Of a DNA stretch of 64,000 nt, positions 966 to 31,463 are shown piece by piece; position 1 is the stretch's first letter, and every line of letters starts with the position of its first letter. The DNA comes from Eledone cirrhosa. Taxonomy: Eukaryota. Made by a program: the position numbers and the translations under genes. The notes beneath the pieces were generated by a model. It worked only from the letters and a program-made list of their open reading frames with translations. It searched no databases and had not been told where the DNA came from. Location: positions 377,208,001 through 377,272,000 of the forward strand of contig OZ024742.1 of assembly GCA_964016885.1 (NCBI GenBank), in the 5' to 3' direction.

Positions 966-973
<8 letters not shown>

Positions 974-1483
974 TAAAATAACAGATTAAAGTTTAAGCAA
1001 AGAATCGCTGCTTTCACCCTTAACGGGATCTTCTGAAACTAACAAAGTCAATCTGTTTATCTTCGTTTTTTCCGTTCATTGCCAGAGAACGTCTCTATGA
1101 ACCACCTAAGAGAACATTAGTCTACGACCTCTTTTATACCATAAACGTGGTTCTGTCTTTGCGCGTAATTGTTTTTCACCGCTCCTATTAATGACGTATT
1201 ATATTCGTTTTTTCCCGTTCTTTGCCAGGGAACGTTTCCACGAACCAAAGTATCGTCTTCCTGTCTTCCTCCGATTGCAACGTTTTTTGAAATATTCACT
1301 TCTGCGTTTACAGATTGACTTTGTTAGTTTCAGAAGATCCTGTTAAGGGTGAAAGCAGCGATTCTTTGCTTAAACTTTAATCTGTTATTTTAATAAATAT
1401 TTGCTCTACGGTTCTTATATATTTGATATATATTTATCCTTATCGAGCCCTCTTTGGATTTTAGTCTTCAAATTTATTATTAT

Positions 1484-1490
<7 letters not shown>
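966..1490. mobile_element. Inverted-pair PLE pLTR element with variant HHR (core CAGAAGA)
   Basis: 966-1056 is the reverse complement of ~1310-1400. The right arm has a ~90-nt extension. (TA)n on both sides. Other copies at 37195-37303, 55960-56515 and 60883-61280. Confidence 0.75.
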
Positions 1491-1553
<63 letters not shown>

Positions 1554-1576
1554 GTATATATACGTATGTCCCATAC

Positions 1577-1605
<29 letters not shown>

Positions 1606-1608
<3 letters not shown>

Positions 1609-1778
1609 GTATGTCTCAAGGCTCTGATACCATCAACACCATAAACACAGAGCTGGCATATCTAAGAATTGACTAACAGCCTGATGAGGTCATAGCCATT
1701 CAATGGCTATCATCGAAATATATATACAAGTAAATAAAGGATTATGAGTTCATGCAATTGACTTATGTTTCGTCACTA
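1606..1778 (+). ncRNA. Short (TA)n-embedded repeat with type I HHR (core at 1681)
   Basis: CTGATGA, hairpin atagccat/atggctat, GAAA-tatata-TA. Better-preserved relatives have stem I actgc/gcagt at 55705-55760 (-) and 49190-49244 (+). Confidence 0.7.
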
Positions 1779-1783
1779 TATAC

Positions 1784-1850
<67 letters not shown>

Positions 1851-1851
<1 letters not shown>

Positions 1852-2042
1852 GTTATTCCGGGTTGAATCGGAGGTAACCACAGTAAGTAAGGTACTCAAT
1901 ACATAGCAGAGTATAAAGGTTTTAATATAGATGAGATTCTACAGGACTAGAACTGTTTCATTCATTAGAAATCATCAGGAATCTGATGATTTCTAATGAA
2001 TGAAACAGTTCTAGTCCTGTAGAATCTCATCTATATTAAAAC

Positions 2043-2050
<8 letters not shown>
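1851..2050. ncRNA. Palindromic mini-element with type I HHR
   Basis: ~68-bp perfect inverted arms centred near 1980. Minus strand 1984-1935 reads agattc-CTGATGA-t-ttc/gaa-t-GAAA-cag/ctg-TA-gaatct. Left arm has a ~60-nt extension. Same family at 47898-47948 and 23855-23925. Confidence 0.8.
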
Positions 2051-2078
<28 letters not shown>

Positions 2079-2082
<4 letters not shown>

Positions 2083-2679
2083 CGTTTCTGAATTTATTTA
2101 GTAAGATTCTTTATCTGAAAACGTGTGTTGAGACCGATATTGTTATACTTTGGGAGGGTCATGTTGCCAATAAGAAAGACACGCACCAGTTGCTTTCACT
2201 TCAATTTACAAAGGCAATAAACATAAATGAACTCCAACCAAAATTAAATAGAAAACATGAATGGAACAACAACATCACAACTTACAATTAAGGACAAAAT
2301 GAAAACACACACGCACATAGAACAAACAACCAACCAGTAACATGTAAATAAACAAATAAATAAACAAATATAAACACACACAGACACCCGGATGTAACAC
2401 ATGCGCAAACTAAGCACACAACACACACAAAAACAGGATGGCGTAGGACAGAACAAAGGAGAGGCACAAAAACAAAGAAAAGAATCTCCAGTCACTGAAG
2501 AGGTCACAGAATGTGTGACGAAAGAACTTTGACAATATATAAACAATCATTTCGTTGTGGAACCAACCAACCAACCGGAAATTTATAAATTCCTAAATTT
2601 ATAAATTTATTATAATAAATTGAAGTGAAAGCAACTGGTGCGTGTGTTTCTTATTGGCAACATGACCCTCCCAAAGTAT

Positions 2680-2686
<7 letters not shown>
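2079..2686 (+). mobile_element. 5'-truncated Naiad-like PLE (3' pLTR with HHR plus short inverted arm)
   Basis: Homologous to 9630-10196. Inverted arm 2079-2207 includes the 60-nt extension. HHR at ~2490-2535. (TA)n flanks. Confidence 0.9.
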
Positions 2687-2740
<54 letters not shown>

Positions 2741-2741
<1 letters not shown>

Positions 2742-3497
2742 GCAAATATGATAATAAGGGCGCTGCGGAGTTGCAAATGGGTTACATATGAAAAAAGTTT
2801 GTCCTTCATCAATGATCTTCCAACTATCATAGGCATTTCATCGCTTTAAAGACCATATACCTCCGGTTGGTGCGAGCAAGGGCTAAAAAAAGTCGTTGGG
2901 ACACGTAAATAAAGGGGACGCGAGGGTAAACAAACAAAATGGTGAGGCAACAGAAAGTGAGGAAAGGAGACAAGTCCCAGATTTCTATGAATTTAAGTTC
3001 GGTGAAATCGTGAACGAGAGAATAAAGACCATCAAACCTGGTTGAAATGTGAGCAAGGAAGGAATTTCGCACAGGTCTAACGGGAGGAAGAAGGAGTCTG
3101 GTCTGCGAATTCGGTAAACATAAGTTCTGTGAAATCGTGGACGAGAGAGAAAAAAAATTCCGACCAGCTTGGCCGAGAATGTGAGAGAAAAGAGTTACTC
3201 ACAGGTCAAATGGGAAGAAAGAGGAGGAGGAGGAGGAGAGGTAGTGACAGAGAATGAGTGAGTGAAGGGTGAGGTGAGGAAGAGGCTAACAGAGAGAGAG
3301 ACTGCTAGAAAGGGTAAAAATAGATAGAACGAAAAAGACGGGGTAGCAGCAGAGGAAAAAATATGTGTAAATATGATAATAAGGGCGCTGCGGAGTTGCA
3401 AATGGGTTACATATGAAAAAAGTTTGTCCTTCATCAGTGATCTTCCAACTATCATAGGCATTTCATCGCTTTAAAGACCATATATCTCCGGTTGGTG

Positions 3498-3500
<3 letters not shown>
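2741..3500 (-). mobile_element. Non-coding element with 132-bp direct terminal repeats (period 625 bp)
   Basis: 2744-2875 is nearly identical to 3369-3500. Purine-rich (+) body, (TA)n both sides. Repeat carries GAAA...CTGATGA on the minus strand. Confidence 0.7.
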
Positions 3501-3563
<63 letters not shown>

Positions 3564-3951
3564 ATACTTTGGGAGGGTCATGGTTAAAATCTGCACTGGG
3601 TAATTGCTGGCCTTGTGCCAAAAGTAGAAACAATTATTACATAAGTTTATTAGTATGTTAGGTAATTTTTGTGGAAACATCTATCCAGATGTACAGCACA
3701 GGCCGATTTATTGTAAATATTGTTGGATGTGTAACGAAAATAACTAAAGGAGTATATAAGGTTCTGACAGCAATGATGCTGGATGAGACATGTTTAGGTT
3801 GAAATGATGATCTCACAGTTTACAGCCACATACTTTCTCATCCAAGTTTATAACCTCTCTCCAATTATTTTATTTTACAACGACGCTAAATATTCATTCT
3901 TTATACACATATATATATAAAGAATAAATATATACACACACATACTATACA

Positions 3952-4026
<75 letters not shown>

Positions 4027-4033
<7 letters not shown>

Positions 4034-4420
4034 AGATCAAAAGATGGCTAAACGAGTTCCATATATTTTATTATGCGCATTTCAAAAACAAATATAATCA
4101 TAGGATGATATTTGCGTTCTCATCAGATAAAATAGGGAGACATGATATGAAGCTTAAAAAACACTTGCGAGCAGTGAATTGTTAAATCGCAAGTGTTTTT
4201 TAACCTTCATATCATGTATCCCTATTTTATCTGATGAGAAGGCAAATATCATCCCATGATGATATTTGTTTTTGAAATGCGCATAATAAAATATATGGAA
4301 CTCTTTTAACCATCTTTTGATCTTATATTATTTATACTCCAGTCCTATAAACTGTAGAGTGGTACTTCTCCGATATTTACATTGCTTTATTGTGCTACAA
4401 TAAAACTCACATCCTACATA
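4027..4420. ncRNA. Inverted-pair mini-element with type I HHR (4223-4293 +, mirror copy on -)
   Basis: Stem I tattttat/ataaaata, CTGATGA at 4231, long stem II, GAAA at 4274, palindromic tgcgca, TA. Arms ~4027-4170 and ~4187-4331, right arm extended. Another copy at 22296-22440 (-). Confidence 0.85.
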
Positions 4421-4431
4421 TATATATATAT

Positions 4432-4540
4432 AACGAAGGAGGTGTGGTAAGGAACCAGATGGACCTTAATGCACCAGAGTACTCAATACTTAGGGTAGTA
4501 GAGTGGGTTATAGGAAAATGTTTGACCCCGACGGCAGAGC

Positions 4541-4543
<3 letters not shown>
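4432..4543 (-). repeat. Fragment of HHR-bearing mini-element family (also 58703-58870, 59230-59385)
   Basis: Clear similarity among three loci. The 58823-58856 copy shows an HHR 3' half: GAAA-cggc/gccg-TC-ggggtc. Confidence 0.65.
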
Positions 4544-4581
<38 letters not shown>

Positions 4582-4587
<6 letters not shown>

Positions 4588-4886
4588 ATTATTATGTAAT
4601 AAACAACATAAGGCAATTATTCCATTTACCAGTGGTTTCTTAAAAGCAAAAGGTTTTGCTTTCAATCCTCAGAATGAAAAATCCTGGTTTGTTTATTGAA
4701 TATGGATTCAATAAACAAACCAGGATTTTTCATTCTGAGGATTGAAAGCAAAACCTTTTGCTTTTAAGAAACCACTGGTAAATGGAATAATTGCCTTATG
4801 TTGTTTATTACATAATAATAATAATTAAGCTCTGTTGCTTACATAGAGCACTCTTTTTTCCTGGACTTTTCCGATGGAATTACTTC

Positions 4887-4893
<7 letters not shown>
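4582..4893. ncRNA. Perfect ~120-bp-arm palindrome with type I HHR (4728-4787 +, mirror copy on -)
   Basis: catt-CTGAGGA (4735), ~11-bp stem II, GAAA (4768), cca/tgg, TA, aatg. Centre 4702-4705. Right arm extended to 4893. Diverged relative at 48560-48646 (-). Confidence 0.85.
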
Positions 4894-4958
<65 letters not shown>

Positions 4959-5171
4959 CGTTTCTGAATTTGTTTAGCAAGATTCTTTATCTGAAATCGT
5001 GTGTTGAAACCGATATTGTTATACTTTGGGAGGGTCATGTTGCCAATAAGAAACACACGCACCAGTTGCTTTCACTTCAATTTAATTTATTATATATTTA
5101 TAAATTTACAAATTTATAAATTTCTGGTTGGTTGGTTGGTTCCACAACCAGATAGTTGTTTATATATATAT

Positions 5172-5216
5172 AGTCATAGTTCTTTCGTCACACACTCTGT
5201 GACCTCTTCAGTGACT
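5172..5216 (-). ncRNA. Minimal type I HHR in the inverted pLTR
   Basis: Reverse complement of the motif at 9993-10037. Confidence 0.75.
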
Positions 5217-5710
5217 GGGGATTTCTTTCTTCGTTTCTGTGCCTTTCCTTTCTTCTATCCTACGCCATTTTGTTTGTGTGTGGGTTGCGTGCTCAGTTTG
5301 CGCATGCGCGCGCCACATCCGGGTGTCTGTGTGTGTTTGTGTTCATTTTTCCATTTTTCTATTTATATTTTTCTATTTGTTTGTTTATTTATTTATTTAT
5401 TGTTGGTTGGTTGTTTGTTCTATGTGTGTGTGTGTTTTCATTTTGTGTGTGTTTTCAATTGTAAGTTGTTTGTTCTATGTGTGTGTGTGTTTTTATTTTG
5501 TTCTTAATTGTAAGTTGTGATGTTGCTGTTCCACTCATATTTTCTATTTAATTTTGGTTTTAATTCTTTTATGCTTACTGCCTCTGTAATTTGCCTAAAC
5601 ATTGCGTCTTTCTTGTGTGTGGATTCTATTTTTATTTCTATGCTCTCTAATTTACCCCTGTGTTCTATCTTAGCATGTTGGTAGAGCACAGATGATTCTT
5701 TATTATCCCC

Positions 5711-5755
5711 AGTCACTGAAGAGGTCACAGAGTCTGTGACGAAAGAACTATGACT
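5711..5755 (+). ncRNA. Minimal type I HHR in the 5' pLTR
   Basis: agtca-CTGAAGA-g-gtcacag/ctgtgac-GAAA-gaac-TA-tgact. 5-bp stem I, minimal stem III, one extra nucleotide after A9. Confidence 0.75.
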
Positions 5756-5888
5756 ATATATATATAAACAACTATCTGGTTGTGGAACCAACCAACCAAC
5801 CAGAAATTTATAAATTTGTAAATTTATAAATATATAATAAATTAAATTGAAGTGAAAGCAACTGGTGCGTGTGTTTCTTATTGGCAAC

Positions 5889-8800
5889 ATGACCCTCCCA
5901 AAGTATAACAATATCGGTTTCAACACACGATTTCAGATAAAGAATCTTGCTAAACAAATTCAGAAACGAAATATCGTAAGCCTTAGCCAGGCTAACAAGA
6001 TACTGAAAACCACCATGTTCTGTTGTCTACGAAAAACCATAACATCTCGACAACTACGCTTCATAAAACTGTGCACCACTTCTAGAATCTACACCAACAC
6101 CATCAATACCGACGTTAGAAGATTACAACTCACCAAAAAACAAGCAGATAGGCTAAAACGAACTTTAATTCTAATCATAAAAAAGAAGATCTATAGAGAA
6201 TTAAGTCATCAAGAAAAACTAAAGCGTAACCTAATACAAGAAATATCTAAAATCACCACACCAGCAGAAAAACTAACATTTATAAGCCTTATACGCCCCG
6301 AAGAACAATACATTACTCAAGAATGTAATAAGCACTTTAACAGAAAATTAAAGTGGCTTAAACAGGCAAAGCTAAATCGGGATACTATAGAGTATACCAA
6401 TAGATATCCCGACAAAATTGACGGTATCAACATGGCCGACACCTCATTATCTGAAGAGTTCAACAATGAAAATACCAACATTTATGGAAACACGGAAATA
6501 GATAATAATAAAATGTCTGTGTTACGTCTGCCACCCAAATTTGCGACATTCAAGAAGGTAAATATGATTAGTTGTCTGTCAGAAATAGAAAAATCATTTA
6601 CGAAACTACGCTGGAGCATCAAAAACAAAAACAAAAGCAACAATATACGCACACACATATACAACACACATCCCAACAACAACAGACACACAGACACAAA
6701 CAACAATAACAACAACAATAGCAACATACCCAGATACAACAACAACAATAGCAACATACCCAGATACAACAACAGACACGCAGACACAAACATCAATAAC
6801 AACACACACGGAGACAACAATAACAACAACACACACATCAACAACAACAACAATAGCAACATACCCAGATACAACAACAACAGACACGCAAACACAAACA
6901 ACAATAACAACACACACAACAACGATAACACACACACACACGGAGACAACAACAACACACATCAACAACAACACACATCAACAACAACAACACACACGCA
7001 TTCAATGCCTCTCACCACCACCACAATCTTAACAAACACACAGACACAGAAAACAAGTAATGACAGTAGCGCAGAAATCAGAGAAATAAGAGAAAGTAAT
7101 AGGATTAAAAGGAAAAGGAGATGGGAGACTAAGGACAAATAGAATAACCAAGACGAACACACAGACACACAAAATAGGGTAGATAACAACATTGAGCCAG
7201 TGGAAAGAGACAGGAGTAATTATGAGAGACATAGAAACAACCATGAAGCTGAGGCTGCTGCTGTTGGTGGAAATAGAAACAACACAACTAACAATAACAA
7301 TAGCACTAGTACACATAAAGCAGCAGCCTGGAACTCTCCGTTTTATAACCCCTCCGATAAATCATTCGACCTACGACGAGTCCACGCCACGACTTTGCCA
7401 TTTAACAAACGCACGCAGTTGCCGTCGCAGGTCGATGAACAAACAGAAGCACAATTTAGTATAGCTAAATCCGAACTTAGAAATATTATAGAACAGTATA
7501 GCAAGAAGCATAATAGAATAGAGGCCCAGCAACTGGGAGAAGAATCTGCAAATGGCTTGCGTAAGCTCATGCAGCGCTCACGTAATGGAGAGATAGCATG
7601 CTTTCCAACAGACAAGTCTGGCAGAATGTCGGTTGACAGCCTGCCAAACTACATCCAGGCAATGCAACCCCACATCACTAACACAAGAGAGGTAACACCA
7701 CAGGAGCATGAGGATAGAGAAAAAACCCTCAATGCCCATATGGTGATGTGGACAAATATAATGCAGCCCAACAAAAGGACTGCCAACAACTTCCAGGCCT
7801 GGAACAATGACGTGCCGGCGTTGTATGGGCTTCGAAAAGACCATAAAACGGGCTGGGACCCTGTCGTGGGACCACCAACACGGCCAGTCTGTGGGGCTAA
7901 CATTGCTAGTAACTACAGACTGTCCTACTTCCTCTCCCTGATCATACGCCCCATCATTGAGATGTCCCCAGATGTGTGTGACAGCACGGAGGACCTCCTC
8001 AGCAGAATCGGCGCGGGTAACCGATCTGGGGACCTAACAAACTGCATAATAGGCAGTATGGATGTTGTGTCCCTGTATCCATCTATTGACGTGGATTTTG
8101 CTGTGGAGAAATGCGTCGAAATGATCGGCGAGAGCAAGGTTGAGTTCCGTGGGATTGATACCAGTGAGCTGGGACTTCTACTTAAGCTTACCCATAGTAA
8201 TAGTTACCTAGACACTTATGACCTTAGCAACCTGTGCCCTACAAGACCAGCAAGAGGCAGACCACCTACCATTACCTCAATGGCCAAGAAAACCCACACA
8301 GATAGATGGAACGGGTGGACCAGAGCCATACGGACACCCGAAAACCACGATGAACTGAAGAAAATGATTGCACATGCGGTAGGGGCCAGCATAAAATTAA
8401 CCCTTAAGGAACATATGTTCAAATTTAATGGTAAAACATATGCCCAAGAGGAAGGAGCAGCCATTGGTGTTAGCATTGCAGGCGACATAGCTAACTTATT
8501 CATGGTATGGTGGGACAGTAGACTTAAACAAAAACTTAATGAACAATTAGAAGACAGCTTAACCCTGATAATGTACTCCCGCTACGTAGATGATATAAAC
8601 ATCGTAGTTAAGACACCCCCACTAAAGAACAGTCAGGAACTAGAGAAAAACACAATGGAAAGCATCCAGCAAATAGCAAACTCCATCCACCAGAGCATTA
8701 GAGTTACTATAGACTACCCAAGTAGACACCCCAACCATCGATTACCTGTACTAGACACAGAGCTCTGGTTAGATACAATTAACAACCAAAAACAAATCCT

Positions 8801-9713
8801 CCATTCCCATTATGCCAAACCCATGACTTCCAAACATCTGATCCACCGAAACTCGGCCATTTCGCACCATACCAAAATCAACATACTGATTGCGGATTTG
8901 GTACGGGTGATGAGAAATGTGTCCCGCATGTGCAACCCCGAAGAACTAGAGAGACACATACAACATTTCATCCACCGTATGCAGTTCTCTGGCTACAATC
9001 AGAGAGATAGAATCAGAGTGTATAAAGGAGCCAGAACCAAATGGGAAAAAATGGGAAATAATGACATAAATGGGACCTGCCCCTTGTATAGGAGCAAATT
9101 TTGGAATAGAATAGAAAGAACTAAGAACAAGGCCAATAGAATAAACTCATGGTATGATAGCAATAAATACCAGAGTGTAATGTTCATCAATACAACCCCT
9201 AGAGGCGAACTAGCCTACAAATTTAGAAGGGCCCTAAAGAAACATAATCTCAATATTAAGATAGTAGAAAGACCTGGTACCTCCGTAAAAACACTTATTA
9301 GCAAGACATACCCGTTCCAAAGACCCTCATGTATAGATAAGAAATGTATAACCTGTAAAATAAGCCCCCATATTAACTGTAAAACTAGAAATGTAGTATA
9401 TAGCATAAGATGTACTGAAGGACAATGTAGAAACAAAAATATAGTGTACATAGGTGAGACAGCTCGTAGTATAGGGGAACGAATAAATGAACACTGGCGA
9501 GACCTCCAAGATAATAAAGAATCATCTGTGCTCTACCAACATGCTAAGATAGAACACAGGGGTAAATTAGAGAGCATAGAAATAAAAATAGAATCCACAC
9601 ACAAGAAAGACGCAATGTTTAGGCAAATTACAGAGGCAGTAAGCATAAAAGAATTAAAACCAAAATTAAATAGAAAATATGAGTGGAACAGCAACATCAC
9701 AACTTACAATTAA
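5889..9713 (+). CDS. PLE polyprotein: N-terminal domain, reverse transcriptase, Cys-rich linker, GIY-YIG endonuclease; one in-frame TAG at 7140-7142
   Basis: Track ORFs 5865-7142 and 7200-9713 share a frame with 19 open codons between them. ATG at 5889 lies in the pLTR. Motifs LPPKF..EIEK..KLRW, PTDKSG, SMDVVSLYPSI, GAAIG, RYVDD, LPVLD, CxxxxCxxC..C, VVY..C..C..YIGET.R...R..EH, LNRK.EW. Confidence 0.92.
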
Positions 9714-9992
9714 GGACAAAATGAAAACACACACACACATAGAACAAACAACTTACAATTGAAAACACACACAAAATGAAAACACACACATAGAACAAAC
9801 AACCAACCAACAATAAATAAATAAATAAACAAACAAATAGAAAAATATAAATAGAAAAATAGAAAAATGAACACAAACACACACAGACACCCGGATGTGG
9901 CGCATGCGCAAACTGAGCACGCAACCCACACACAAACAAAATGGCGTAGGATAGAAGAAAGGAAAGGCACAGAAACGAAGAAAGAAATCCCC

Positions 9993-10037
9993 AGTCACTG
10001 AAGAGGTCACAGAGTGTGTGACGAAAGAACTATGACT
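9993..10037 (+). ncRNA. Minimal type I HHR in the 3' pLTR
   Basis: agtca-CTGAAGA-g-gtcaca/tgtgac-GAAA-gaac-TA-tgact. Confidence 0.75.
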
Positions 10038-10681
10038 ATATATATATAAACAACTATCTGGTTGTGGAACCAACCAACCAACCAGAAATTTATAAATTTG
10101 TAAATTTATAAATATATAATAAATTAAATTGAAGTGAAAGCAACTGGTGCGTGTGTTTCTTATTGGCAACATGACCCTCCCAAAGTATAACAATATATAT
10201 ATATATATATATATAAGCATACAAATAGAATGAGAATAAGAAGAAAGCAAGAACAGGGGGGGGGGTTCCTCATCAGTTGTCTACTGAGGGTCTCGGATAT
10301 TTCAATGCTTTACAGACAATATACCTACCGCCCAGAGCGTTCAATAACCAGGTAAGTTATTTGGAAAACGGAGGAGGGAGGGAAATAAAATAGAAGGGAA
10401 AAGGTGAAAAGGCAACGGTGGAACACAATTTAACTATTTTAAATTTTGATGGCATCACTAAGAAGATGAAATAAAAGCTAAGTTAACAATATGGATCGAC
10501 AGCATGAGGCAGTCGATACGATTAATGTTTAAAACGATATCCAATCTTCGCTGTTTATTAACCTGAACTAGAAATCAATAAAGAATTTCAATATCTGCTG
10601 CTAATATAACAAAATAGTATTTAATTACATTTTAACTTTAAAAAAAAAGGTGAGAAATGTTGTTTAATATACCCAGCTCTT

Positions 10682-13600
10682 ATTGTTGGTAGTCAGTGAG
10701 TAAGAGGTTAGCTCCTGGTAACTAGGACCGTGTTGTTGGTAGTCAGAGAGTTAGAGGTTAGCTCCAGGTAACTAGGACCGTGTTGTTGGTAGACAGTGAG
10801 TAAGAGGTTATCACCTGGTAACTAGGACCGTGTTGTTGGTAGTCAGTGAGTTAGAGGTTAGCTCCTGGTAACTAGGACCGTGTTGTTGGTAGTCAGTGAG
10901 TAAGAGGTTAGCTCCTGGTAACTAGGACCGTGTTGTTGGTAGTTAGTGAGTAAGAGGTTATCACCTGGTAACTAGGACCGTGTTGTTGGTAGACAGTGAG
11001 TAAGAGGTTATCACCTGGTAACTAGGACCGTGTTGTTGTAGTCAGTGAGTAAGAGGTTAGCTCCAGGTAACTAGGACCGTGTTGTTGGTAGTTAGTGAGT
11101 AAGAGGTTATCACCTGGTAACTAGGACCGTGTTGTTGGTAGACAGTGAGTAAGAGGTTATCACCTGGTAACTAGGACCGTGTTGTTGGTAGTCAGTGAGT
11201 AAGAGGTAATCACCTGGTAACTAGGACCGTGTTGTTGGTAGACAGTGAGTAAGAGGTTAGCTCCTGGTAACTAGGACCGTGTTGTTGGTAGTCAGTGAGC
11301 AAGAGGTTATCACCTGGTAACTAGGACCGTGTTGTTGGTAGTCAGTGAGTTAGAGGTTAGCTCCAGGTAACTAGGACCGTGTTGTTGGTAGACAGTGAGT
11401 AAGAGGTTATCACCTGGTAACTAGGACCGTGTTTTTGGTAGTCAGTGAGTTAGAGGTTAGCTCCAGGTAACTAGGACCGTGTTGTTGGTAGACAGTGAGT
11501 AAGAGGTTATCACCTGGTAACTAGGACCGTGTTGTTGGTAGACAGTGAGTAAGAGGTTATCACCTGGTAACTAGGACCGTGATGTTGGTAGTCAGTGAGT
11601 AAGAGGTTATCACCTGGTAACTAGGACCGTGTTGTTGGTAGTCAGTGAGTTAGAGGTTAGCTCCAGGTAACTAGGACCGTGTTGTTGGTAGACAGTGAGT
11701 AAGAGGTTATCACCTGGTAACTAGGACCGTGTTTTTGGTAGTCAGTGAGTTAGAGGTTAGCTCCAGGTAACTAGGACCGTGTTGTTGGTAGACAGTGAGT
11801 AAGAGGTTATCACCTGGTAACTAGGACCGTGTTGTTGGTAGACAGTGAGTAAGAGGTTATCACCTGGTAACTAGGACCGTGATGTTGGTAGTCAGTGAGT
11901 AAGAGGTTATCACCTGGTAACTAGGACCGTGTTGTTGGTAGTCAGTGAGTAAGAGGTTATCACCTGGTAACTAGGACGGTGTTGTTGGTAGACAGTGAGT
12001 AAGAGGTTATCACCTGGTAACTAGGACCGTGATGTTGGTAGTCAGTGAGTAAGAGGTTATCACCTGGTAACTAGGACCGTGTTGTTGGTTGTCAGTGAGT
12101 AAGAGGTTATCACCTGGTAACTAGGACCGTGTTGTTGGTAGTCAGTGAGTAAGAGGTTATCACCTGGTAACTAGGACCGTGTTGTTGGTAGTCAGTGAGT
12201 AAGAGGTTATCACCTGGTAACTAGGACCGTGTTGTTGGTAGTCAGTGAGTAAGAGGTTATCACCTGGTAACTAGGACCGTGTTGTTGGTAGTCAGTGAGT
12301 AAGAGGTTATCACCTGGTAACTAGGACCGTGTTGTTGGTAGTCAGTGAGTAAGAGGTTATCACCTGGTAACTAGGACCGTGTTGTTGGTAGTCAGTGAGT
12401 TAGAGGTTAGCTCCTGGTAACTAGGACCGTGTTGTTGGTAGTCAGTGGTTAAGAGGTTAGCTCCAGGTAACTAGGACCGTGTTGTTGGTAGTCAGTGAGT
12501 AAGAGGTTATCACCTGGTAACTAGGACCGTGTTGTTGGTAGTCAGTGAGTAAGAGGTTATCACCTGGTAACTAGGACCGTGTTGTTGGTAGTCAGTGAGT
12601 AAGAGGTTATCACCTGGTAACTAGGACCGTTTTGTTGGTAGTCAGTGAGTAAGAGGTTATCACCTGGTAACTAGGACCGTGTTGTTGGTAGTCAGTGAGT
12701 AAGAGGTTAGCTCCAGGTAACTAGGACCGTGTTGTTGGTAGTCAGTGAGTAAGAGGTTATCACCTGGTAACTAGGACCGTGTTGTTGGTAGTCAGTGAGT
12801 AAGAGGTTATCACCTGGTAACTAGGACCGTGTTGTTGGTAGTCAGTGAGTAAGAGGTTAGCTCCAGGTAACTAGGACCGTGTTGTTGGTAGTCAGTGAGT
12901 AAGAGGTTATCACCTGGTAACTAGGACCGTGTTGTTGGTAGTCAGTGAGTTAGAGGTTATCACCTGGTAACTAGGACCGTGTTGTTGGTAGTCAGTGATT
13001 AAGAGGTTATCACCTGGTAACTAGGACCGTGTTGTTGGTAGTCAGTGAGTTAGAGGTTATCACCTGGTAACTAGGACCGTGTTGTTGGTAGTCAGTGAGT
13101 TAGAGGTTAGCTCCTGGTAACTAGGACCGTGTTGTTGGTAGTCAGTGAGTAAGAGGTTATCACCTGGTAACTAGGACCGTGTTGTTGGTAGTCAGTGAGT
13201 AAGAGGTTATCACCTGGTAACTAGGACCGTGTTGTTGGTAGACAGTGAGTAAGAGGTTATCACCAGGTAACTAGGACCGTGTTGTTGGTAGTCAGTGAGT
13301 AAGAGGTTATCACCAGGTAACTAGGACCGTGTTGTTGGTAGTCAGTGAGTAAGAGGTTATCACCTGGTAACTAGGACCGTGTTGTTGGTAGTCAGTGAGT
13401 AAGAGGTTATCACCTGGTAACTAGGACCGTGTTGTTGGTAGTCAGTGAGTAAGAGGTTATCACCTGGTAACTAGGACCGTGTTGTTGGTAGTCAGTGAGT
13501 AAGAGGTTAGTTCCTGGTAACTAGGACCGTGTTGTTGGTAGTCAGTGAGTTAGAGGTTAGCTCCTGGTAACTAGGACCGTGTTGTTGGTAGTCAGTGAGT

Positions 13601-16075
13601 AAGAGGTTATCACCAGGTAACTAGGACCGTGTTGTTGGTAGTCAGTGAGTAAGAGGTTATCACCTGGTAACTAGGACCGTGTTGTTGGTAGTCAGTGAGT
13701 AAGAGGTTAGCTCCAGGTAACTAGGACCGTGTTGTTGGTAGTCAGTGAGTAAGAGGTTATCACCTGGTAACTAGGACCGTGTTGTTGGTAGTCAGTGAGT
13801 AAGAGGTTATCACCTGGTAACTAGGACCGTGTTGTTGGTAGTCAGTGAGTAAGAGGTTATCACCTGGTAACTAGGACCGTGTTGTTGGTAGTCAGTGAGT
13901 AAGAGGTTATCACCTGGTAACTAGGACCGTGTTGTTGGTAGTCAGTGAGTAAGATGTTATCACCTGGTAACTAGGACCGTGTTGTTGGTAGTCAGTGAGT
14001 AAGAGGTTATCACCTGGTAACTAGGACCGTGTTGTTGGTAGTCAGTGAGTAAGAGGTTATCACCTGGTAACTAGGTCCGTGTTGTTGGTAGTCAGTGAGT
14101 TAGAGGTTAGCTCCTGGTAACTAGGACCGTGTTGTTGGTAGTCAGTGGTTAAGAGGTTAGCTCCAGGTAACTAGGACCGTGTTGTTGGTAGTCAGTGAGT
14201 AAGAGGTTATCACCTGGTAACTAGGACCGTGTTGTTGGTAGTCAGTGAGTAAGAGGTTATCACCTGGTAACTAGGACCGTGTTGTTGGTAGTCAGTGAGT
14301 AAGAGGTTATCACCTGGTAACTAGGACCGTTTTGTTGGTAGTCAGTGAGTAAGAGGTTATCACCTGGTAACTAGGACCGTGTTGTTGGTAGTCAGTGAGT
14401 AAGAGGTTAGCTCCAGGTAACTAGGACCGTGTTGTTGGTAGTCAGTGAGTAAGAGGTTATCACCTGGTAACTAGGACCGTGTTGTTGGTAGTCAGTGAGT
14501 AAGAGGTTATCACCTGGTAACTAGGACCGTGTTGTTGGTAGTCAGTGAGTAAGAGGTTAGCTCCAGGTAACTAGGACCGTGTTGTTGGTAGTCAGTGAGT
14601 AAGAGGTTATCACCTGGTAGCTAGGACCGTGTTGTTGGTAGTCAGTGAGTTAGAGGTTATCACCTGGTAACTAGGACCGTGTTGTTGGTTGTCAGTGAGT
14701 AAGAGGTTATCACCTGGTAACTAGGACCGTGTTGTTGGTAGTCAGTGAGTTAGAGGTTATCACCTGGTAACTAGGACCGTGTTGTTGGTAGTCAGTGAGT
14801 AAGAGGTTATCACCTGGTAACTAGGACCGTGTTGTTGGTAGTCAGTGAGTTAGAGGTTATCACCAGGTAACTAGGACCGTGTTGTTGGTAGTCAGTGAGT
14901 AAGAGGTTATCACCTGGTAACTAGGACCGTGTTGTTGGTAGACAGTGAGTAAGAGGTTATCACCAGGTAACTAGGACCGTGTTGTTGGTAGTCAGTGAGT
15001 AAGAGGTTATCACCAGGTAACTAGGACCGTGTTGTTGGTAGTCAGTGAGTAAGAGGTTATCACCTGGTAACTAGGACCGTGTTGTTGGTAGTCAGTGAGT
15101 AAGAGGTTATCACCTGGTAACTAGGACCGTGTTGTTGGTAGTCAGTGAGTAAGAGGTTATCACCTGGTAACTAGGACCGTGTTGTTGGTAGTCAGTGAGT
15201 AAGAGGTTAGTTCCTGGTAACTAGGACCGTGTTGTTGGTAGTCAGTGAGTTAGAGGTTAGCTCCTGGTAACTAGGACCGTGTTGTTGGTAGTCAGTGAGT
15301 AAGAGGTTATCACCAGGTAACTAGGACCGTGTTGTTGGTAGTCAGTGAGTAAGAGGTTATCACCTGGTAACTAGGACCGTGTTGTTGGTAGTCAGTGAGT
15401 AAGAGGTATCACCTGGTAACTAGGACTGTGTTGTTGGTAGTCAGTGAGTAAGAGGTTATCACCTGGTAACTAGGACCGTGTTGTTGGTAGTCAGTGAGTA
15501 AGAGGTTAGTTCCTGGTAACTAGGACCGTGTTGTTGGTAGTCAGTGAGTAAGAGGTTATCACCTGGTAACTAGGACCGTGTTGTTGGTAGTCAGTGAGTA
15601 AGTGGTTATCACCTGGTAACTAGGACCGTGTTGTTGGTAGTCAGTGAGTAAGAGGTTATCACCTGGTAACTAGGACCGTGTTGTTGGTAGTCAGTGAGTA
15701 AGAGGTTAGTTCCTGGTAACTAGGACCGTGTTGTTGGTAGTCAGTGAGTTAGAGGTTAGCTCCTGGTAACTAGGACCGTGTTGTTGGTAGTCAGTGAGTA
15801 AGAGGTTATCACCTGGTAACTAGGACCGTGTTGTTGGTAGTCAGTGAGTAAGAGGTTAGCTCCTGGTAACTAGGACCGTGTTGTTGGTAGTCAGTGAGTT
15901 AGAGGTTATCACCAGGTAACTAGGACCGTGTTGTTGGTAGTCAGTGAGTTAGAGGTTATCACCAGGTAACTAGGACCGTGTTGTTGGTAGTCAGTGAGTA
16001 AGAGGTTATCACCTGGTAACTAGGACCGTGTTGTTGGTTGTCAGTGAGTTAGAGGTTAGCTCCTGGTCACTAGCC
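10682..16075. repeat. 50-bp tandem satellite, ~108 units
   Basis: Consensus GTTGTTGGTAGTCAGTGAGTAAGAGGTTATCACCTGGTAACTAGGACCGT, no spacers, no ORF in the track. Degenerate tail to ~16110. Confidence 0.98.
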
Positions 16076-17336: not shown

Positions 17337-17585
17337 GAGGCCTATTCCTCACCCCTCAACGTGGCCCCATTCCTCACTCCTCAACGTGGCCCCATTCCTC
17401 ACTCCTCAACGTGGCCCCATTCCTCACTCCTCAACGTGGCCCCATTCCTCACCCCTCAACGTGGCCCCTTTCCTCACCCCTCAACGTGTCCCTATTCCTC
17501 ACCCCTCAACGTGGCCCCATTCCTCACTCCTCAACGTGGCCCCATTCCTCACCCCTCAACGTGGCCCCATTCCTCACCCCTCAAC
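17337..17585. repeat. 25-bp minisatellite (~10 units)
   Basis: GGCCCCATTCCTCAC(C/T)CCTCAACGT repeated in tandem. Confidence 0.95.
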
Positions 17586-18687: not shown

Positions 18688-19230
18688 GAGCGGTGGATTG
18701 GCAGTGTCGGTAGAGGGTCGGACACCAGGGCGGTGGATTGGCAGTGTCAGTAGAGGGTCGGACACAAGGGCGGTGGATTGGCAGTATCGGTAGAGGGTCG
18801 GACACCATGCTAGGGCGGTGGATTGGCAGTGTCGGTAGAGGGTCGGACACCATGCTAGGGCGGTGGATTGGCAGTGTCGGTAGAGGGTCGGACACCATGC
18901 TAGGGCGGTGGATTGGCAGTGTCGGTAGAGGGTCGGACACCATGCTAGGGTGGTGGATTGGCAGTGTCGGTAGAGGGTCGGACACCATGCTAGGGTGGTG
19001 GATTGGCAGTGTCGGTAGAGGGTAGGACACCATACTAGGGCGGTGGATTGGCAGTGTCGGTAGAGGGTAGGACACCATGCTTTGCAGCAAAGAGTTACGT
19101 TCCTTTACGGTCTGAGTTCAAATCCCGTCGAAGTTAATTTTGCCTTTCATCCTTACAGGGTCGATAAAATAAAGTACCAGTAATGTAGTGGGTAATTGCT
19201 GGCCTTGTGCCAAATGTAGAAACAATATTA
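18688..19230 (+). mobile_element. SINE preceded by a tandem array of its own 45-bp 5' head (~9 heads)
   Basis: Unit GGCGGTGGATTGGCAGTGTCGGTAGAGGGTCGGACACCATGCTAG with period 45 (first two units 40 bp). The last unit continues into a complete SINE. Confidence 0.92.
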
Positions 19231-20852: not shown

Positions 20853-21600
20853 TAACAAGCCAGAACATATAAAATCAAGGGAGTGTAAACACAGAAAATA
20901 TCTTTAAAAATAATAATAAATAATTGAATTCCAAAAATTCACTGTATTTACTATATTTATTATTATTTTTTTTATTTTTAAAGATATTTTCTGTGTTTAC
21001 ACTCCCTTGATTTTATATGTTCTGGCTTGTTAATTTATTTACTTGCTATTGAACCACATTGGCATACAGACTATACTTATATCCCTGTATGTATTAATTA
21101 CATATAGGACACATACTTTTATTATTATTCTCCCCAATGGTAGAGACACCTTCGGTCGTTCGTGCAGCTGCTATTTTTTGTAGCATTAGATTGACCTGTC
21201 CGACGTGCTTTCGCCTTTGCATGCGTTCCTAACCATAACTGATTCATTCTGAGGCAGTTTGGTATGGCGCCAGTTTGTAATTTGAACACGGGAATTTTAT
21301 ATTCTCCGAGAGAGAAAAGCCTTCTGACGATGATCTCTTTCTCAATGGAAATCCACTTGGATTGTCTATTTATTTGGGATCTGAAACCACGGTAAAGGCA
21401 CATATAGTAAGTACGGTGAATTTTTTGGAATTTAATTATTTATTATTATTTTTTAAGATATTTTCTGTGTTTACACTCCCTTGATTTTATATGTTCTGGT
21501 TTGTTAATTTATTAACTTAATATTGAGCCACACTGGCATACGGACTATACTTGTATCCCTGTATGTATTAATTACATATAGGACACATACTTTTATTATA
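20853..21600 (+). mobile_element. Miniature non-coding element with PLE-type architecture
   Basis: Inverted arm 20853-20956, partial direct repeat 20955-21125, unique body 21126-21401, full repeat 21402-21600, then (TA)n. Confidence 0.7.
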
Positions 21601-22259
21601 TATATATATATATATATATGAATTTGTTTTACAAAGATTTTAATATGAAATCGTGTGTTGAAACAAATATTGTTATATTTGGGGAGGGTCATATTGTTAT
21701 AATATTGCCAGAAATATATAATAAAACACGCTCACTGTTTGGTTTGGGTTGGTCTTCGCTTCAGTATATTTTATATTTCTATAATTAATTCAGCTGGCAA
21801 TCAATGTTTATCATTGATTGAGCAACAGTTAAAATATAGATATGAATATAGTATCTCAAAGTTCTTCGACACACAGCTGTGATATCATCAGTGACACTAT
21901 TATGTTTCCTCCCGTTCTATGACAACATGACCCTCTCCAAATATAATGATATATATTTTAATAAATATTTACTCTACGGTTCTTATATATTTGATATATA
22001 TTTATCCTTATCGAGCCCTCTTTGGATTTTAGTCTTCAAATTTATTATTATTACTATTAATATTATTACTATTATTATTACTATATATATATTATTTTAT
22101 CGACCCCGTAAGGATGAAAGGCAAAGTTAATCCCGCCGAGGTTAACTTTGCCTTTCATCATTACGGGGTCGATAAAATAAAGTACCAGTAATGCACTGGG
22201 TAATTTCTGGCCTTGTGCCTAAAGTAGAAATAATTATTACTATATATATATATAAATAT

Positions 22260-22303
<44 letters not shown>

Positions 22304-23032
22304 AGATCAAAAGATGGTTAAAAGAGTTCCATGTATTTTATTATGCGCATTTCAAAAACAAATATCATCATGCAACAATATTTGTGTTTTCATCAGATAA
22401 AATAGGAAGACATGATATGAAGGTTAAAAAACACTTGTGAATAGTGCAGTTTTGAATCAACATATGAAAAGTAGTTTTAGATTGATGTGTGATATTTTGA
22501 AAAAAATTTGGTGAGGGGGGAGGGGTGGAAAGGATGAAAAAGAGGAGGAGATGAGAGTAAAAAGTGGAGGGGGAGGAGTATAATGAGGAAGGATGAGATA
22601 GGAGGAGAGATGGGCGATAGAGAGAGAGAGAGATAGCATTTATAACTGAGAAAAATATATTGTTTTACATAGAGAGGTTGAAAAACCGTTGGAAGATAAT
22701 GTATAAATTAAAAGAATTTGAAAATTAACGAAGAGAAAAATAATGTAAAGTTAAGGTTTGTATATTGAAGGGTTTAATAATATGTGCGATGAAAAGAAAA
22801 TGTTAATATGTATTAAGAACAATATTTAAGGGTTTAATAATATGTGCGATGGTAAAAACTCACCTCCTACATACACTATATATATATATATATATGAGGG
22901 TGTTAAAGTTTGCTTGAAGCATTGTGAAATGTGTAAAATACGTAGTTAAGAAAGCCACAACAATGCAGAGGGAAATCTCGAGGTAGGAAGTGAATGATAG
23001 ATAGGAGAAATATATATATATATATATATACA

Positions 23033-23844
<812 letters not shown>

Positions 23845-23962
23845 TGCATATATTTAATATAGAAATAGCTTCTACAAGACTAGAACTGTTTCATTCTAGT
23901 CCTGTAGAAGCCATTTCTATATTAAACCCGGGATAAACTTATATATATATATATATATATAT

Positions 23963-24464
23963 GTAGATAAATCTACCAAAATATACGGTAGTGTCCAATC
24001 CGTATGCAGAACTCAATGTAATCCAAATATCATGAAAAGAGAAGATGCTTTCTAAAATTTTCGATGAAAATCACAGGAAAACAGAGTCAAGATAAATGAA
24101 TAAAAACAATGAATAAAACAAAGACAAAGTTCCTTATATTAACAAATTCATCATTTTCCGATCGTTTCTAGGATGTATATGTGTGTTGGTATGTATATCA
24201 TATAGATCTATGTAAAAATATTACAAACTATCAGAGGAAATATACATACCTTCACATGTATATGCTGTCTTCAGAAATAAATTATTTCTGAAGACAGCAT
24301 ATACATGTGAAGGTATGTATATTTCCTCTGATAGTTTGTAATATTTTTACATAGATCTATATGATATACATACCAACACACATATACATCCTAGAAACGA
24401 TCGGAAAATGATGAATTTGTTAATATAAGGAACTTTGTCTTTGTTTTATTCATTGTTTTTATTC

Positions 24465-24470
<6 letters not shown>
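23963..24470. mobile_element. Palindromic pLTR pair of the PLE at 41037-45160, with large-stem-II HHR motif (24281-24412)
   Basis: Arms 24091-24280 and 24282-24470 are reverse complements. Arm matches 44971-45160. The extension 23963-24091 matches the reverse complement of 41037-41167. Confidence 0.85.
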
Positions 24471-28629: not shown

Positions 28630-28721
28630 TTTCACACGTGATTTCGCCTATTGCCGGATAACATCAAAACAAAACACACACACACACACACATATCTATA
28701 CTTATAGAGCTGACGGTCATA

Positions 28722-28757
<36 letters not shown>

Positions 28758-28782
28758 TGTATGTATATATGTATGTATGTAT

Positions 28783-29375
28783 GTCAGGTCACCAGTTGGT
28801 GCTACTGGTAACATGTATCCCAGTACAACCTGTCCCAAGGTCGGGTCGTTGGCGACTAAAATGGCAACACCACCAAGGTTTCTTGGTGAGGAGGGTGACT
28901 TTGGACATCCTGCAGGACTAAAAACAAAACCTGTCAAAGGGAAAAAGAGCTCTTAAGAGTCAATGGCCATCCAAAATCACCGGGAGAGATGACCCCTTAG
29001 CCTTTGTCAAGGCAGAATTCTAGGAGAAGGAAAGCTCTGATATAACACCTGCAACCCTGATGGTATCCAATGATGTTGACTTGTTCTTCTTTTTGGTAAA
29101 TATCATCTTGGTTAAGAGAGTGGGACTGGCTTTGTGCAGTGGCTTTGCTCACTATAAAAGCTTCATGGCACAGGCATTGCTTTATATCTGGAGATCTCTC
29201 TGCACTTGTCGTCACATGGTACCATTGGCCTAGCACTATGTGTCAATAATTGTCACAGGTGTAGTGTTTGTACCAGAGTTTTCAAGTCGCTGGCTGGACT
29301 AAAGTCACATTCGTTCAGCGCATCGGTAGGAGTTCTCCTACATGGATATAAAGTAGTGGCCGTACTCGAAAACGA
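28783..29375 (+). mobile_element. ~600-bp non-autonomous RTE-derived element (3' tip missing)
   Basis: Highly similar copies at 30746-31355, 31505-32097, 49426-50033, 52085-52521 (-) and 63975-64000. The 3' part encodes [17 protein letters not shown] like the RTE C-terminus. (ATGT)n flanks. Confidence 0.85.
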
Positions 29376-29751
29376 AAACCAGTATGACTCTAAGAACCGG
29401 TTTGTCTGTGTGTCTACATACGGAATAGCTGGACACTCACAGTAAAGTGACCAGTGAAAACTCGGTACATCTACATATGTACACGTGTGTGTATTCATAT
29501 GCATACTAGTATTTCAGTATACATATGTGGATGTACATTTTTAACTTAATTGTTTAAGCGCCAGTCATACAAAAGTGAGTTACAAACGAAACGAAATTTA
29601 ATTTCGTTTCGTTATTTGTTTTTATCGTCTCCGTTGAACCGGTACGTACTCACGCTCTATGCAAATTGGTCTGCCCACTACTAATTTTCATAGAAAAAGC
29701 ATATAACGATATGTGCTTTCACGATTCTCTAGAGAAGCCGGAAGATAGGTA

Positions 29752-29796
29752 AATATTGCTGATGAGATGTAACAACATCGAAACTAGTCCAATATT
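29752..29796 (+). ncRNA. Canonical minimal type I hammerhead ribozyme
   Basis: aatattg-CTGATGA-gatgt(aaca)acatc-GAAA-ctag-TC-caatatt. GUC site predicts cleavage after 29789. Palindromic ACTAGT stem III. Confidence 0.93.
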
Positions 29797-30216
29797 CCTT
29801 GTCTGGCTTTCTGGAGAATAGAGGAAAGGTGTTTCCTCAAAAACCAGTATGACTCTAAGAACCGGTTTGTCTGTGTGTCTACATACGGAATAGCTGGACA
29901 CTCACAGTAAAGTGACCAGTGAAAACTCGGTACATCTACATATGTACACGTGTGTGTATTCATATGCATACTAGTATTTCAGTATACATATGTGGATGTA
30001 CATTTTTAACTTAATTGTTTAAGCGCCAGTCATACAAAAGTGAGTTACAAACGAAACGAAATTTAATTTCGTTTCGTTATTTGTTTTTATCGTCTCCGTT
30101 GAACCGGTACGTACTCACGCTCTATGCAAATTGGTCTGTCCACTACTAATTTTCATAGAAAAAGCATATAACGATATGTGCTTTCACGATTCTCTAGAGA
30201 AGCCGGAAGATAGGTA

Positions 30217-31355: not shown

Positions 31356-31463
31356 TGTATGTATATATGCATGTATATATGTATGTATGTATATATATAT
31401 ACATATATATGTGTATGTATGTATGTATGTATGTATATATATGTATGTATGTATATGTGTATG

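Follow-up and report, generated by a model that had tools for sequence, protein, structure and literature searches.

Lopsided hairpins at TA repeats in Eledone cirrhosa are head-to-head insertions of Penelope-like elements and probably arise by coupled priming at two fixed RNA sites

A 64-kb stretch of the Eledone cirrhosa genome (contig OZ024742.1; "the window" below means this whole stretch, whose copies provided the entire census) contains lopsided hairpins that are head-to-head insertions of about a dozen families of Penelope-like elements (PLEs) in TA repeats. One outer arm end of such a hairpin lies at a TA run, and the other arm runs on as a tail, 53-141 nt long, to a far end. Both ends are fixed within each family and nearly every two-armed insertion combines one of each kind. 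These hairpins are probably the product of coupled twin priming, in which both strands of the target would be primed at two fixed sites of the RNA within one complex.

Hairpin architecture

The window is AT-rich and dense in (TA)n runs and other repeats. Hairpin arms were detected by self-BLAST of the window after microsatellite masking, and the 45 segments (40-1000 nt each) that lie between TA runs of at least 12 nt were all scanned for inverted repeats. Both analyses confirmed the layout proposed in a first-pass annotation of this DNA, i.e., inverted arms of which one stops early and the other is extended; the extension, put at 60-130 nt in that annotation, is present with a range of 53-141 nt. 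Fusion of both ends to AT-rich microsatellite, also proposed there, was found nearly always, the microsatellite being (TA)n, but the right end of the element placed at 37428-37860 abuts a short interspersed nuclear element (SINE). The insertion at 20853-21596 has no TA run at its left end.

The left and right outer ends of the arms were 65 and 0 nt from the nearest TA run for the hairpin at 1916-2045, 0 and 89 nt for 4029-4328, 0 and 66 nt for 4584-4823, 2 and 93 nt for 23033-23582, 132 and 0 nt for 24095-24467, 8 and 81 nt for 56899-57194 and 80 and 0 nt for 58785-58866. These distances were 60 and 0 nt for both 2141-2683 and 5017-10192, and 53 and 0 nt for 380-715; the arms at 970-1396 start at a TA run (0 nt) and their right end, at 1486, lies 90 nt further on. 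Distances of 0 and 336 nt (37430-37733) and of 2 and 257 nt (60273-60582) were found where a SINE intervenes. By comparison, only 558 of 60916 positions (0.9%) adjoin a TA run.

Inverted repeats were present in 16 of the 45 segments, and 11 of these 16 showed the lopsided layout, nine with offsets of 0-2 and 53-132 nt and two with the same layout plus an internal SINE. The remaining five were 5173-5754, bounded by an internal (TA)6 present in both arms of the element at 4957; 21620-22240, a SINE hairpin; 23839-23939, which is near-symmetric with offsets of 14 and 13 nt; 56530-56832, which has an internal deletion; and 56891-57275, where the alignment is split by a masked run. Ten shuffles of the sequence each gave 0 inverted matches of at least 28 nt. 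A transcript through 4029-4417 is predicted to fold with -209 kcal/mol (z -32); effects of the hairpins through cruciforms or double-stranded RNA, as raised in the first-pass annotation, are speculation.

The overlapping parts of the arms, up to 683 nt long, are 90-100% identical. Several overlaps reach 98-100%, as might be expected if sequencing or assembly had produced fold-back artefacts, and this alternative was judged without raw reads. However, other overlaps are 90-96% identical, a SINE with its target duplication is present in one arm only (60583-60762), the ends recur across loci and three insertions have no palindrome. An artefact is thus the least credible origin of these structures, and it is unlikely for any single near-perfect palindrome.

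Family-fixed ends and their pairing

Every copy in the window was placed on one copy of its family (the letters A-M are labels coined in this analysis), which gave two end points, E1, the family-fixed end of the tail-less arm, and E2, that of the tailed arm. E1 and E2 were represented by 5 and 3 copies, respectively, in family A, 2 and 2 in A2, 4 and 4 in B, 3 and 2 in D, 2 and 3 in J, 3 and 1 in F and 2 and 1 in each of C, E and G. The ends of each family agree within a few nucleotides across loci, giving the two sharp ends per family that the first-pass annotation expected, at independent loci of the window. The flanks past the TA runs differ among copies, except for the family B insertions at 970-1486 and 55961-56510, both of which run into element M.

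Tail length is 53 nt in A2, 60 in A, 65 in F, 66 in G, 80 in J, 81 in I, 89 in C, 88-90 in K, 90 in B, 93 in D, 132 in E and about 141 in H. In three families, the tail consists of the part of the 5' body directly downstream of the pseudo-long terminal repeat (pLTR), i.e., 5911-5970 in A, 41039-41166 in E and 21033-21120 in K; this identity had previously been noted for two families. The family A tail, then placed at 5915-5974, begins 4 nt earlier when the bases ATAT, common to element and target, are included. Within family A, tail variants track the pLTR subfamily of the opposite arm, both arms matching one subfamily, and the same 7-nt AT-rich motif is found at E1 and E2.

Two candidate explanations for the position of the ends were rejected. 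Folding of 19 tails gave z values of +0.9 to -4.2, with the tail ends paired in few copies and inconsistently within families; a tail stem that would draw E1 close to E2 was dismissed as a general rule. Ribozyme cleavage does not define the arm ends either, as the cleavage sites lie 24-160 nt inside E1.

Among 20 two-armed insertions, listed by hand from self-BLAST and family mapping, 19 have one E1 and one E2 end (binomial 2e-5 against 0.5); in the five families with at least two two-armed copies, this holds for 12 of 12 (0.5^12 = 2.4e-4). In families A, B, D and J, the ends recur at independent loci but each copy has a centre of its own, so each hairpin was made anew. The differing centres also rule out that whole hairpins were copied as units.

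Long (TA)n runs and palindromes are fragile. Along with an internal deletion in one family D copy, this fragility could point to an origin after insertion, through replication slippage or repair at (TA)n; alternatively, the hairpins could be DNA transposons with long inverted ends that resemble miniature inverted-repeat transposable elements (MITEs). The ends are, however, fixed by family yet unequal, no unique flank is duplicated and the centres vary; the equal terminal inverted repeats and shared interior of MITEs are not seen. Moreover, the arms contain pLTR hammerheads and two families lead into reverse transcriptase (RT) open reading frames (ORFs). Both variants of this explanation are very improbable.

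Identity of the elements

The presence of hammerheads in the arms and of two ORF-bearing copies identifies the elements as PLEs. In a pattern scan of 36 hand-picked stretches (15,223 nt), 21 hammerhead cores were found, compared to 0-1 in the 20 shuffles used as a control. Type I hammerheads were found in families A, B (with a variant core), C, D, F, G and K; none was found by the pattern scan in A2, E, H, I and J. Families H, I and J are candidate PLEs, assigned from architecture only. In both arms of A, B, C, D and G, the hammerheads read outward on opposite strands, which puts the 3' ends of the RNA at the outer ends of the hairpin. In the three intact family B hammerheads (995-1035, 1331-1371 and 37239-37279), the second position of the core, usually a U, is an A, and two further family B copies lack 6 nt of the core region. 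Among the Rfam matches listed (150 of 187), hammerheads were reported only at 29741 and 30206; the others were sub-threshold microRNA-type matches at palindromes and TA runs.

The family A ORF (5889-9713) encodes RT followed by a GIY-YIG endonuclease, with the YVDD and YIGET motifs in the same frame, which has a single in-frame TAG (7140-7142), and it carries an Asn/Thr-rich insert. This insert, a repeat at 6674-7000, lies upstream of the TAG; Asn-rich ORF inserts have been described in rotifer PLEs (PMC3846280). The Pfam RVT_1 match (E 2.8e-4) is below the curated cut-off and there was no Pfam match to GIY-YIG. The ORF has 175 relatives, some of which are labelled RT and GIY-YIG by Pfam, and the closest is an Octopus vulgaris protein with 67% identity. 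Because relatives align from residue 3, the start codon is likely that at 5889, inside the pLTR, which puts E1 and E2 at +22 and +82.

Family A has the structure of endonuclease-containing (EN+) PLEs, including a partial-tandem pLTR, 5' truncation, an inverted copy and a tail. The first-pass annotation had called these copies Naiad-like, which is wrong: the ORF has its GIY-YIG motif downstream of the RT, at residue 1198 of 1285, whereas Naiad has an N-terminal endonuclease, no CxC motif was found in the ORF and a hammerhead core is present in the pLTR, the latter two features also being contrary to Naiad. A CX4CxxC linker is found at residue 1159, and further Cys and His residues, read by eye, are conserved in 23 sequences. 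By its CX2-5CxxC linker and CCHH motif, family A is classified from its sequence as a Neptune/Nematis-type PLE, a label that covers both clades.

The family E ORF has a DKT motif, a CxCX5C linker, no CCHH, a C-terminal endonuclease (Pfam GIY-YIG match weak, E 0.047) and a (TA)n target, which fits the description of Hydra. Neither the RWK motif nor a canonical hammerhead was found in its broken copy by motif reading and pattern scan, and family E is accordingly described here as Hydra-like and not filed as a member of Hydra.

Arm reach, centres and junctions

A single priming event, after which the cDNA or an antisense-templated copy folds back and an endonuclease resolves the product at E1 and E2, would also yield inverted arms. 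Self-priming and resolution by the endonuclease have already been put forward for PLEs (PMC3846280, PMC8557442), the palindromic centres of E, F and G have spacers of only 0-4 nt and the 7-nt motif present at both ends of family A might serve as a cut site. After fold-back, however, the second arm could contain nothing that is missing from the first. Of the 19 E1-E2 insertions, 11 have a tail-less arm that extends beyond the tailed arm in the 5' direction and so holds sequence absent from the latter; in 6 it is the tailed arm that extends further 5', and in 2 the arms are equal (this split is uncertain for the D insertion at 23031 and for H and I, where the spacer could not be assigned). Arms overlap in 16 of the 19; the other three (55961, 59231 and 60886) have no overlap and hence no palindrome. 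Simple cDNA fold-back is ruled out for the copies with an outreaching tail-less arm or without overlap, and it survives only if an antisense or DNA template is added, which makes this explanation rather improbable.

Microhomology at the centres was read by eye from alignments and counted at the 11 junctions with an independent reference, the other 9 centres being dropped. Exact microhomology was 3, 3, 3, 0, 1, 2, 3, 4, 2, 2 and 0 nt, so that 8 of 11 junctions had at least 2 nt compared to 19% expected (p 1.7e-4). For 14 family ends, among which the family I row was mis-mapped, the continuation of the template is known, and in 10 of them its first 3-5 bases are the same as in the adjoining TA run; an overlap of at least 3 nt is expected at 13%, and the mean was 2.9 vs 1.1 (permutation p 0.001).

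Coupled twin priming and its alternatives

We consider coupled twin priming of both target strands at two fixed RNA sites in one complex to be the probable mechanism. In this mechanism, a PLE protein-RNA complex would cut both (TA)n strands and both 3' ends would prime reverse transcription, one at E1 and the other at E2, the (TA)n primer pairing with 3-5 nt of UAU or AUAU in the RNA at each site. A single complex, probably a dimer bound to one RNA, would couple the two primings, which would account for the finding that the same end is almost never used twice. Both cDNAs would be extended toward the 5' end of the RNA and stop independently. If the enzyme that started at E2 displaced the E1 cDNA, overlapping arms and hence a hairpin would result; if it stopped before, an inversion without palindrome would form. 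Finally, the cDNA 3' ends would be joined through 0-4 nt of microhomology, followed by fill-in, and priming at one end only would give a single-armed copy. For the short families without ORF, Neptune/Nematis-type or Hydra-like proteins would act in trans to mobilize them.

The Poseidon element PAc of Anolis carolinensis provides the closest biochemical support. Both target strands are cut and extended in vitro, reverse transcription begins at two internal sites between which the genomic tail lies, and a dimer has been predicted (PMC11167929); the dimer step proposed here is by analogy to this one study. No strand difference of the start site was reported for PAc in bulk (PMC11167929), which is compatible with either arm carrying the tail. 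The head-to-head layout is what would be expected if both 3' ends of a cut were extended on sense RNA. That both target strands prime at two fixed sites had been suggested in the first-pass annotation, and this idea fits the layout, the centre microhomology and the cases that exclude fold-back. The tandem or circular template suggested along with it is not required, as a linear RNA spanning the pLTR-ORF junction gives both starts in vitro (PMC11167929); a partial tandem is nevertheless needed for 4957-5707 and 20853-21596, and a circle fits 41039-45158.

Dual priming by two separate RNAs, or by two pLTR copies of a tandem or circular RNA, with each subunit set to one start site, is an unlikely alternative. 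The two-RNA version differs from coupled twin priming on one RNA in template number only. It would ease the long overlaps, which on one RNA need strand displacement over up to 683 nt, and it could explain the family B arm at 37194-37300, which is fused to the ORF of another family. The copies that need a partial-tandem template and the one at 41039-45158, an exact unit cut at E1 for which no upstream pLTR was found, also point in this direction; furthermore, dual priming has been proposed for L1 (PMC2837659), as has a circular RNA for PLEs (PMC4209133). Two free RNAs alone, however, leave the avoidance of same-end pairs unexplained, and both arms of family A insertions match one subfamily. In addition, two tailed arms (59231-59382, where the arm stops at E1, and 21957-22054, where it stops no more than 7 nt from E1) look as if their extension had met a block on a shared RNA. 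One RNA therefore better accounts for the pairing rule and for tailed arms that stop at E1.

Several points weigh against coupled twin priming. All the sequence evidence comes from a single 64-kb window and a hand-made list of insertions, and in families C, E, F, G, H, I and K the only two-armed copy contributes its own ends to the definition of E1 and E2. Due to their shared flank M, the insertions at 970-1486 and 55961-56510 are not independent and may end at the end of M. The copy at 23839-23939 breaks the E1-E2 rule, and two-ended priming is not obligatory since there are at least 10 single-armed copies, 8 of which end at or near E1 (these include 22299 and 37300) and 2 at E2. The references used for centre microhomology are diverged copies. 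With regard to the template overlap with TA, A2 and H gave 0 and 1 nt, in addition to the mis-mapped row of family I; the start sites of PAc are described as non-homologous to the target (PMC11167929), contrary to primer pairing; and TA-like bases at E1 and E2 would fit an endonuclease cut site in element DNA equally well. The near-perfect palindromes of E and G fit fold-back equally, and 37194-37300, by joining two families, points to two RNAs rather than one.

Comparison with known systems

Much of this architecture has been described previously. EN+ PLEs are reported to insert in (TA)n, to form partial tandems and to carry a further copy, inverted and 5'-truncated, at their 5' end; a tail that is often limited to one end and codes for early residues, a pLTR hammerhead, an ORF start inside the pLTR and an Asn-rich ORF insert have also been described for them (Craig et al. 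2021, PMC8557442; Arkhipova et al. 2013, PMC3846280). PMC8557442 describes inverted 5' copies with a 30-40 nt, often one-sided tail and TA targeting, and PMC3846280 describes an inverted pLTR with a 31-nt tail; the statement in the first-pass annotation that inverted pLTRs with a tail occur in PLEs thus has published support. In contrast to the published 30-40 nt, the tails in the window are 53-141 nt long, and most copies here are short and without ORF. The tail is also presented in these sources as optional or often one-sided, whereas E1 and E2 are paired in 19 of 20 insertions here.

The window elements share with PAc (Frangieh et al. 2024, PMC11167929) two internal RT starts that bound the tail and lie inside the start of the ORF, an end that is not the ribozyme cut, cutting and extension of both target strands and an AT-rich target. 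PAc belongs to another clade, and its starts are non-homologous to the target and lie in an AC-rich stem-loop (PMC11167929); in the window, by contrast, most ends have 3-5 nt in common with (TA)n, and the 19 folded tails revealed no structure typical of them all. In L1 twin or dual priming (Meyer et al. 2010, PMC2837659), the second target strand likewise primes a second cDNA, giving a head-to-head inversion that is often joined by microhomology. The first L1 primer, however, lies on poly(A), the second site is variable and the pieces have no overlap (PMC2837659); in the window both sites are fixed and internal, and 16 of 19 arm pairs overlap, giving hairpins. The hairpins thus resemble twin priming in manner and are not L1 products.

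Non-LTR retrozymes and the minimal hammerheads of Schistosoma PLEs (PMC7229834, bioRxiv 10.64898/2026.07.22.740005, PMC4209133) are similar in being short, ORF-less PLE derivatives with type I hammerheads, and hammerhead pairs 100-700 bp apart on opposite strands, along with the idea of circular RNA, have been reported (PMC4209133). Retrozymes are defined as head-to-tail tandems, however, whereas the hairpins are head-to-head with two defined ends. In the available parts of PMC8969392, PMC13282606, PMC12602865, PMC9977147 and PMC12910113, general PLE structure or counts are given and nothing further on hairpins, and a literature search, within the text accessible to it, found neither a proposal of twin priming for PLEs nor a description of these cephalopod hairpins. 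To the published record, the window adds E1-E2 pairing, longer tails, tail-less arms with extra sequence and microhomology at centres and ends; the strict pairing and the evidence against fold-back, in particular, appear to be additions to the known PLE shape.

Catalogue of insertions

Family A is represented by a long element that consists of an inverted arm on the minus strand (4957-5707; 3' end of the ORF, pLTR and 60-nt tail, with E2 at 4957 in (TA)n) and a long arm on the plus strand (5705-10192; partial pLTR 5705-5910, tail 5911-5970, the ORF at 5889-9713 and a pLTR with a hammerhead at 9998, ending at E1 at 10192). An insertion without ORF at 2081-2683 has a tailed arm at 2081-2208 (60-nt tail) and a tail-less arm at 2202-2683 that reaches about 400 nt further 5'. 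The insertion at 60271-60839 has its E1 arm at 60271-60529 and a tailed arm at 60527-60839, which is split by a SINE (60583-60762) with a 9-nt target duplication in this arm only; a single-armed, 5'-truncated copy on the plus strand (39449-40955) ends at E1. The related family A2 is found at 327-715, with an inverted, tailed left arm (tail 327-379, 53 nt), a longer tail-less right arm with E1 at 715 and no ribozyme detectable by pattern scan, and at 21620-21948, with a long tailed arm on the left and a tail-less arm of 32 nt on the right.

The family B hairpin at 970-1486, given as 966-1490 in the first-pass annotation, has an inverted left arm (970-1056) ending at E1 and a right arm (1057-1396) followed by the 90-nt tail to E2 at 1486; its centre is blunt and each arm carries a variant-core hammerhead, at 1331 (+) and 1035 (-). 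Its right arm may instead end at 1784, the end of element M (1608-1784, plus strand), which is linked to the B tail through (TA)n. This block of B tail, (TA)n and M occurs twice, at 1439-1850 and, inverted, at 55586-56008, the two being 91% alike, which suggests a composite read-through RNA that moved as a unit; the second M copy has a hammerhead at 55755. At 55961-56510, a 48-nt tail piece on the left, flanked by M, faces a 502-nt arm that ends at E1, without arm overlap. An inversion without palindrome at 60886-61277 comprises a 349-nt E1 arm on the left and the final 44 nt of the tail on the right. Two B arms lie on the plus strand, one (21957-22054) consisting of tail only and ending at E2 and the other (37194-37300) ending at E1, head-to-head with a Hydra-like ORF piece on the minus strand (36366-37193). 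Window comparison did not find a B pLTR at the 3' end of this ORF, and 36366-37300 possibly reflects two RNAs primed at one break or a deletion that joined two insertions.

Family C includes the hairpin at 4029-4417 (arms 4029-4328, 95% alike; 89-nt tail to 4417; 2 nt of centre microhomology; hammerheads at 4126 (-) and 4231 (+)) and a long inverted arm from E1 at 22299 within 22297-22876, which has a probable 19-nt tail-end stub at its right (18/19 match) and was kept outside the 20. Family D was found at 23031-23675 (arms 23033-23273 and 23342-23582, 93-nt tail, hammerheads at 23127 (-) and 23488 (+)) and at 56530-56832, with an E1 arm on the left and a right arm that carries an internal deletion and a 23-nt duplication and ends at E2. 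Window comparison did not match the D tail at the right end of 57987-58154. Family E forms a near-perfect palindrome (24095-24467) with a 132-nt tail (23963-24094) and has a broken, Hydra-like ORF-bearing copy at 41039-45158 on the plus strand, one exact unit from just after E1 (tail 41039-41166) to E1, with three SINE insertions; as a single case without an upstream pLTR, it fits a circular RNA template or a block at an upstream E1.

Family F is present at 1851-2045 (65-nt tail 1851-1915, arms 1916-2045, 3 nt of centre microhomology, hammerhead at 1978 (-)) and as the diverged copy with 37-nt arms at 23839-23939, the exception to the pairing rule; window comparison did not match the F tail at 47702-47900. 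Family G occupies 4584-4889, where the arms span 4584-4823 and a 66-nt tail leads on to 4889; its hammerheads lie at 4672 (-) and 4735 (+). The H insertion (37430-37874) has a 35-nt overlap (37430-37464 and 37699-37733) and an extension of about 141 nt, with a SINE preceding the TA run, and the I insertion (56891-57275) has an overlap of about 70 nt and an 81-nt extension. Family J comprises a hairpin at 58705-58866 (80-nt tail on the left, arms 58785-58866, 2 nt of centre microhomology), an insertion without palindrome at 59231-59382, the tail-less arm of which is at 59312-59382, and a single arm on the minus strand that ends at E2 (4433-4543). In family K (20853-21596), an inverted arm (20853-20956) whose E1 abuts a SINE is followed by pLTR, tail, body, pLTR and tail, with E2 at 21596 and a hammerhead at 21324.

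Neighbouring repeats

A tandem retrozyme is found at 29375-30555 (465 nt x 2.5, units 99% identical), with matches to the Rfam HH9 hammerhead (E 2.5e-6, below the gathering score), and a related partial tandem at 57305-57946 has a hammerhead at 57611. Element L (2742-3499 and 58196-58663) lies between TA runs with direct terminal repeats of 140 nt and no inverted arm; no hammerhead was found in it by pattern scan. A tRNA-like SINE has about 25 matches in the window, one of which forms a lopsided hairpin in (TA)n (22093-22240) that was left out of the count, being one such end among these matches. This SINE also forms a head-to-head pair with full 3' ends at 38825-39228, and is inserted at E1 of a family A copy (60583-60762) and in the E pLTR (44900-44976). 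Other repeats include a satellite at 10683-16073 (about 108 copies of 50-nt units, 95% alike), two short arrays, one at 17344-17585 and one, made up of SINE head sequence, at 18690-19081, and a repeat of about 700 nt with at least 5 copies, two of them inverted (28718-32152, 49296-50046 and 52020-52521), that is tied to (TATG)n and (CATA)n runs. Broken ORF pieces at 25211-27128, 33876-35169 and 59641-60207 resemble, by eye only, RTs of long interspersed nuclear elements.

Implications

How the inverted structures of PLEs form and why PLEs prefer microsatellites is named as an open problem in PMC8557442. The window provides rules that separate the models, namely pairing of one E1 with one E2, tail-less arms that reach beyond tailed ones and microhomology at centres and ends, and the pairing rule can be tested per molecule, since an in vitro PLE system exists. 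For annotation, short hairpins of this type are liable to be taken for MITEs, microRNA precursors or assembly errors.

More broadly, we propose as a serious but still tentative possibility that EN+ PLEs normally integrate by coupled asymmetric priming of two strands. A single complex would place two fixed start sites of the RNA, separated by up to 140 nt, at the 3' ends of both strands of a cut (TA)n and pair each primer with a few bases of the template. Inverted pLTRs and a one-sided tail would be built in one step, in two or more clades and in a dozen passenger families that lack an ORF. If so, this route would replace self-priming and resolution by the endonuclease as explanations of these structures, and PLEs would steadily add long palindromes to the microsatellites of cephalopod genomes.

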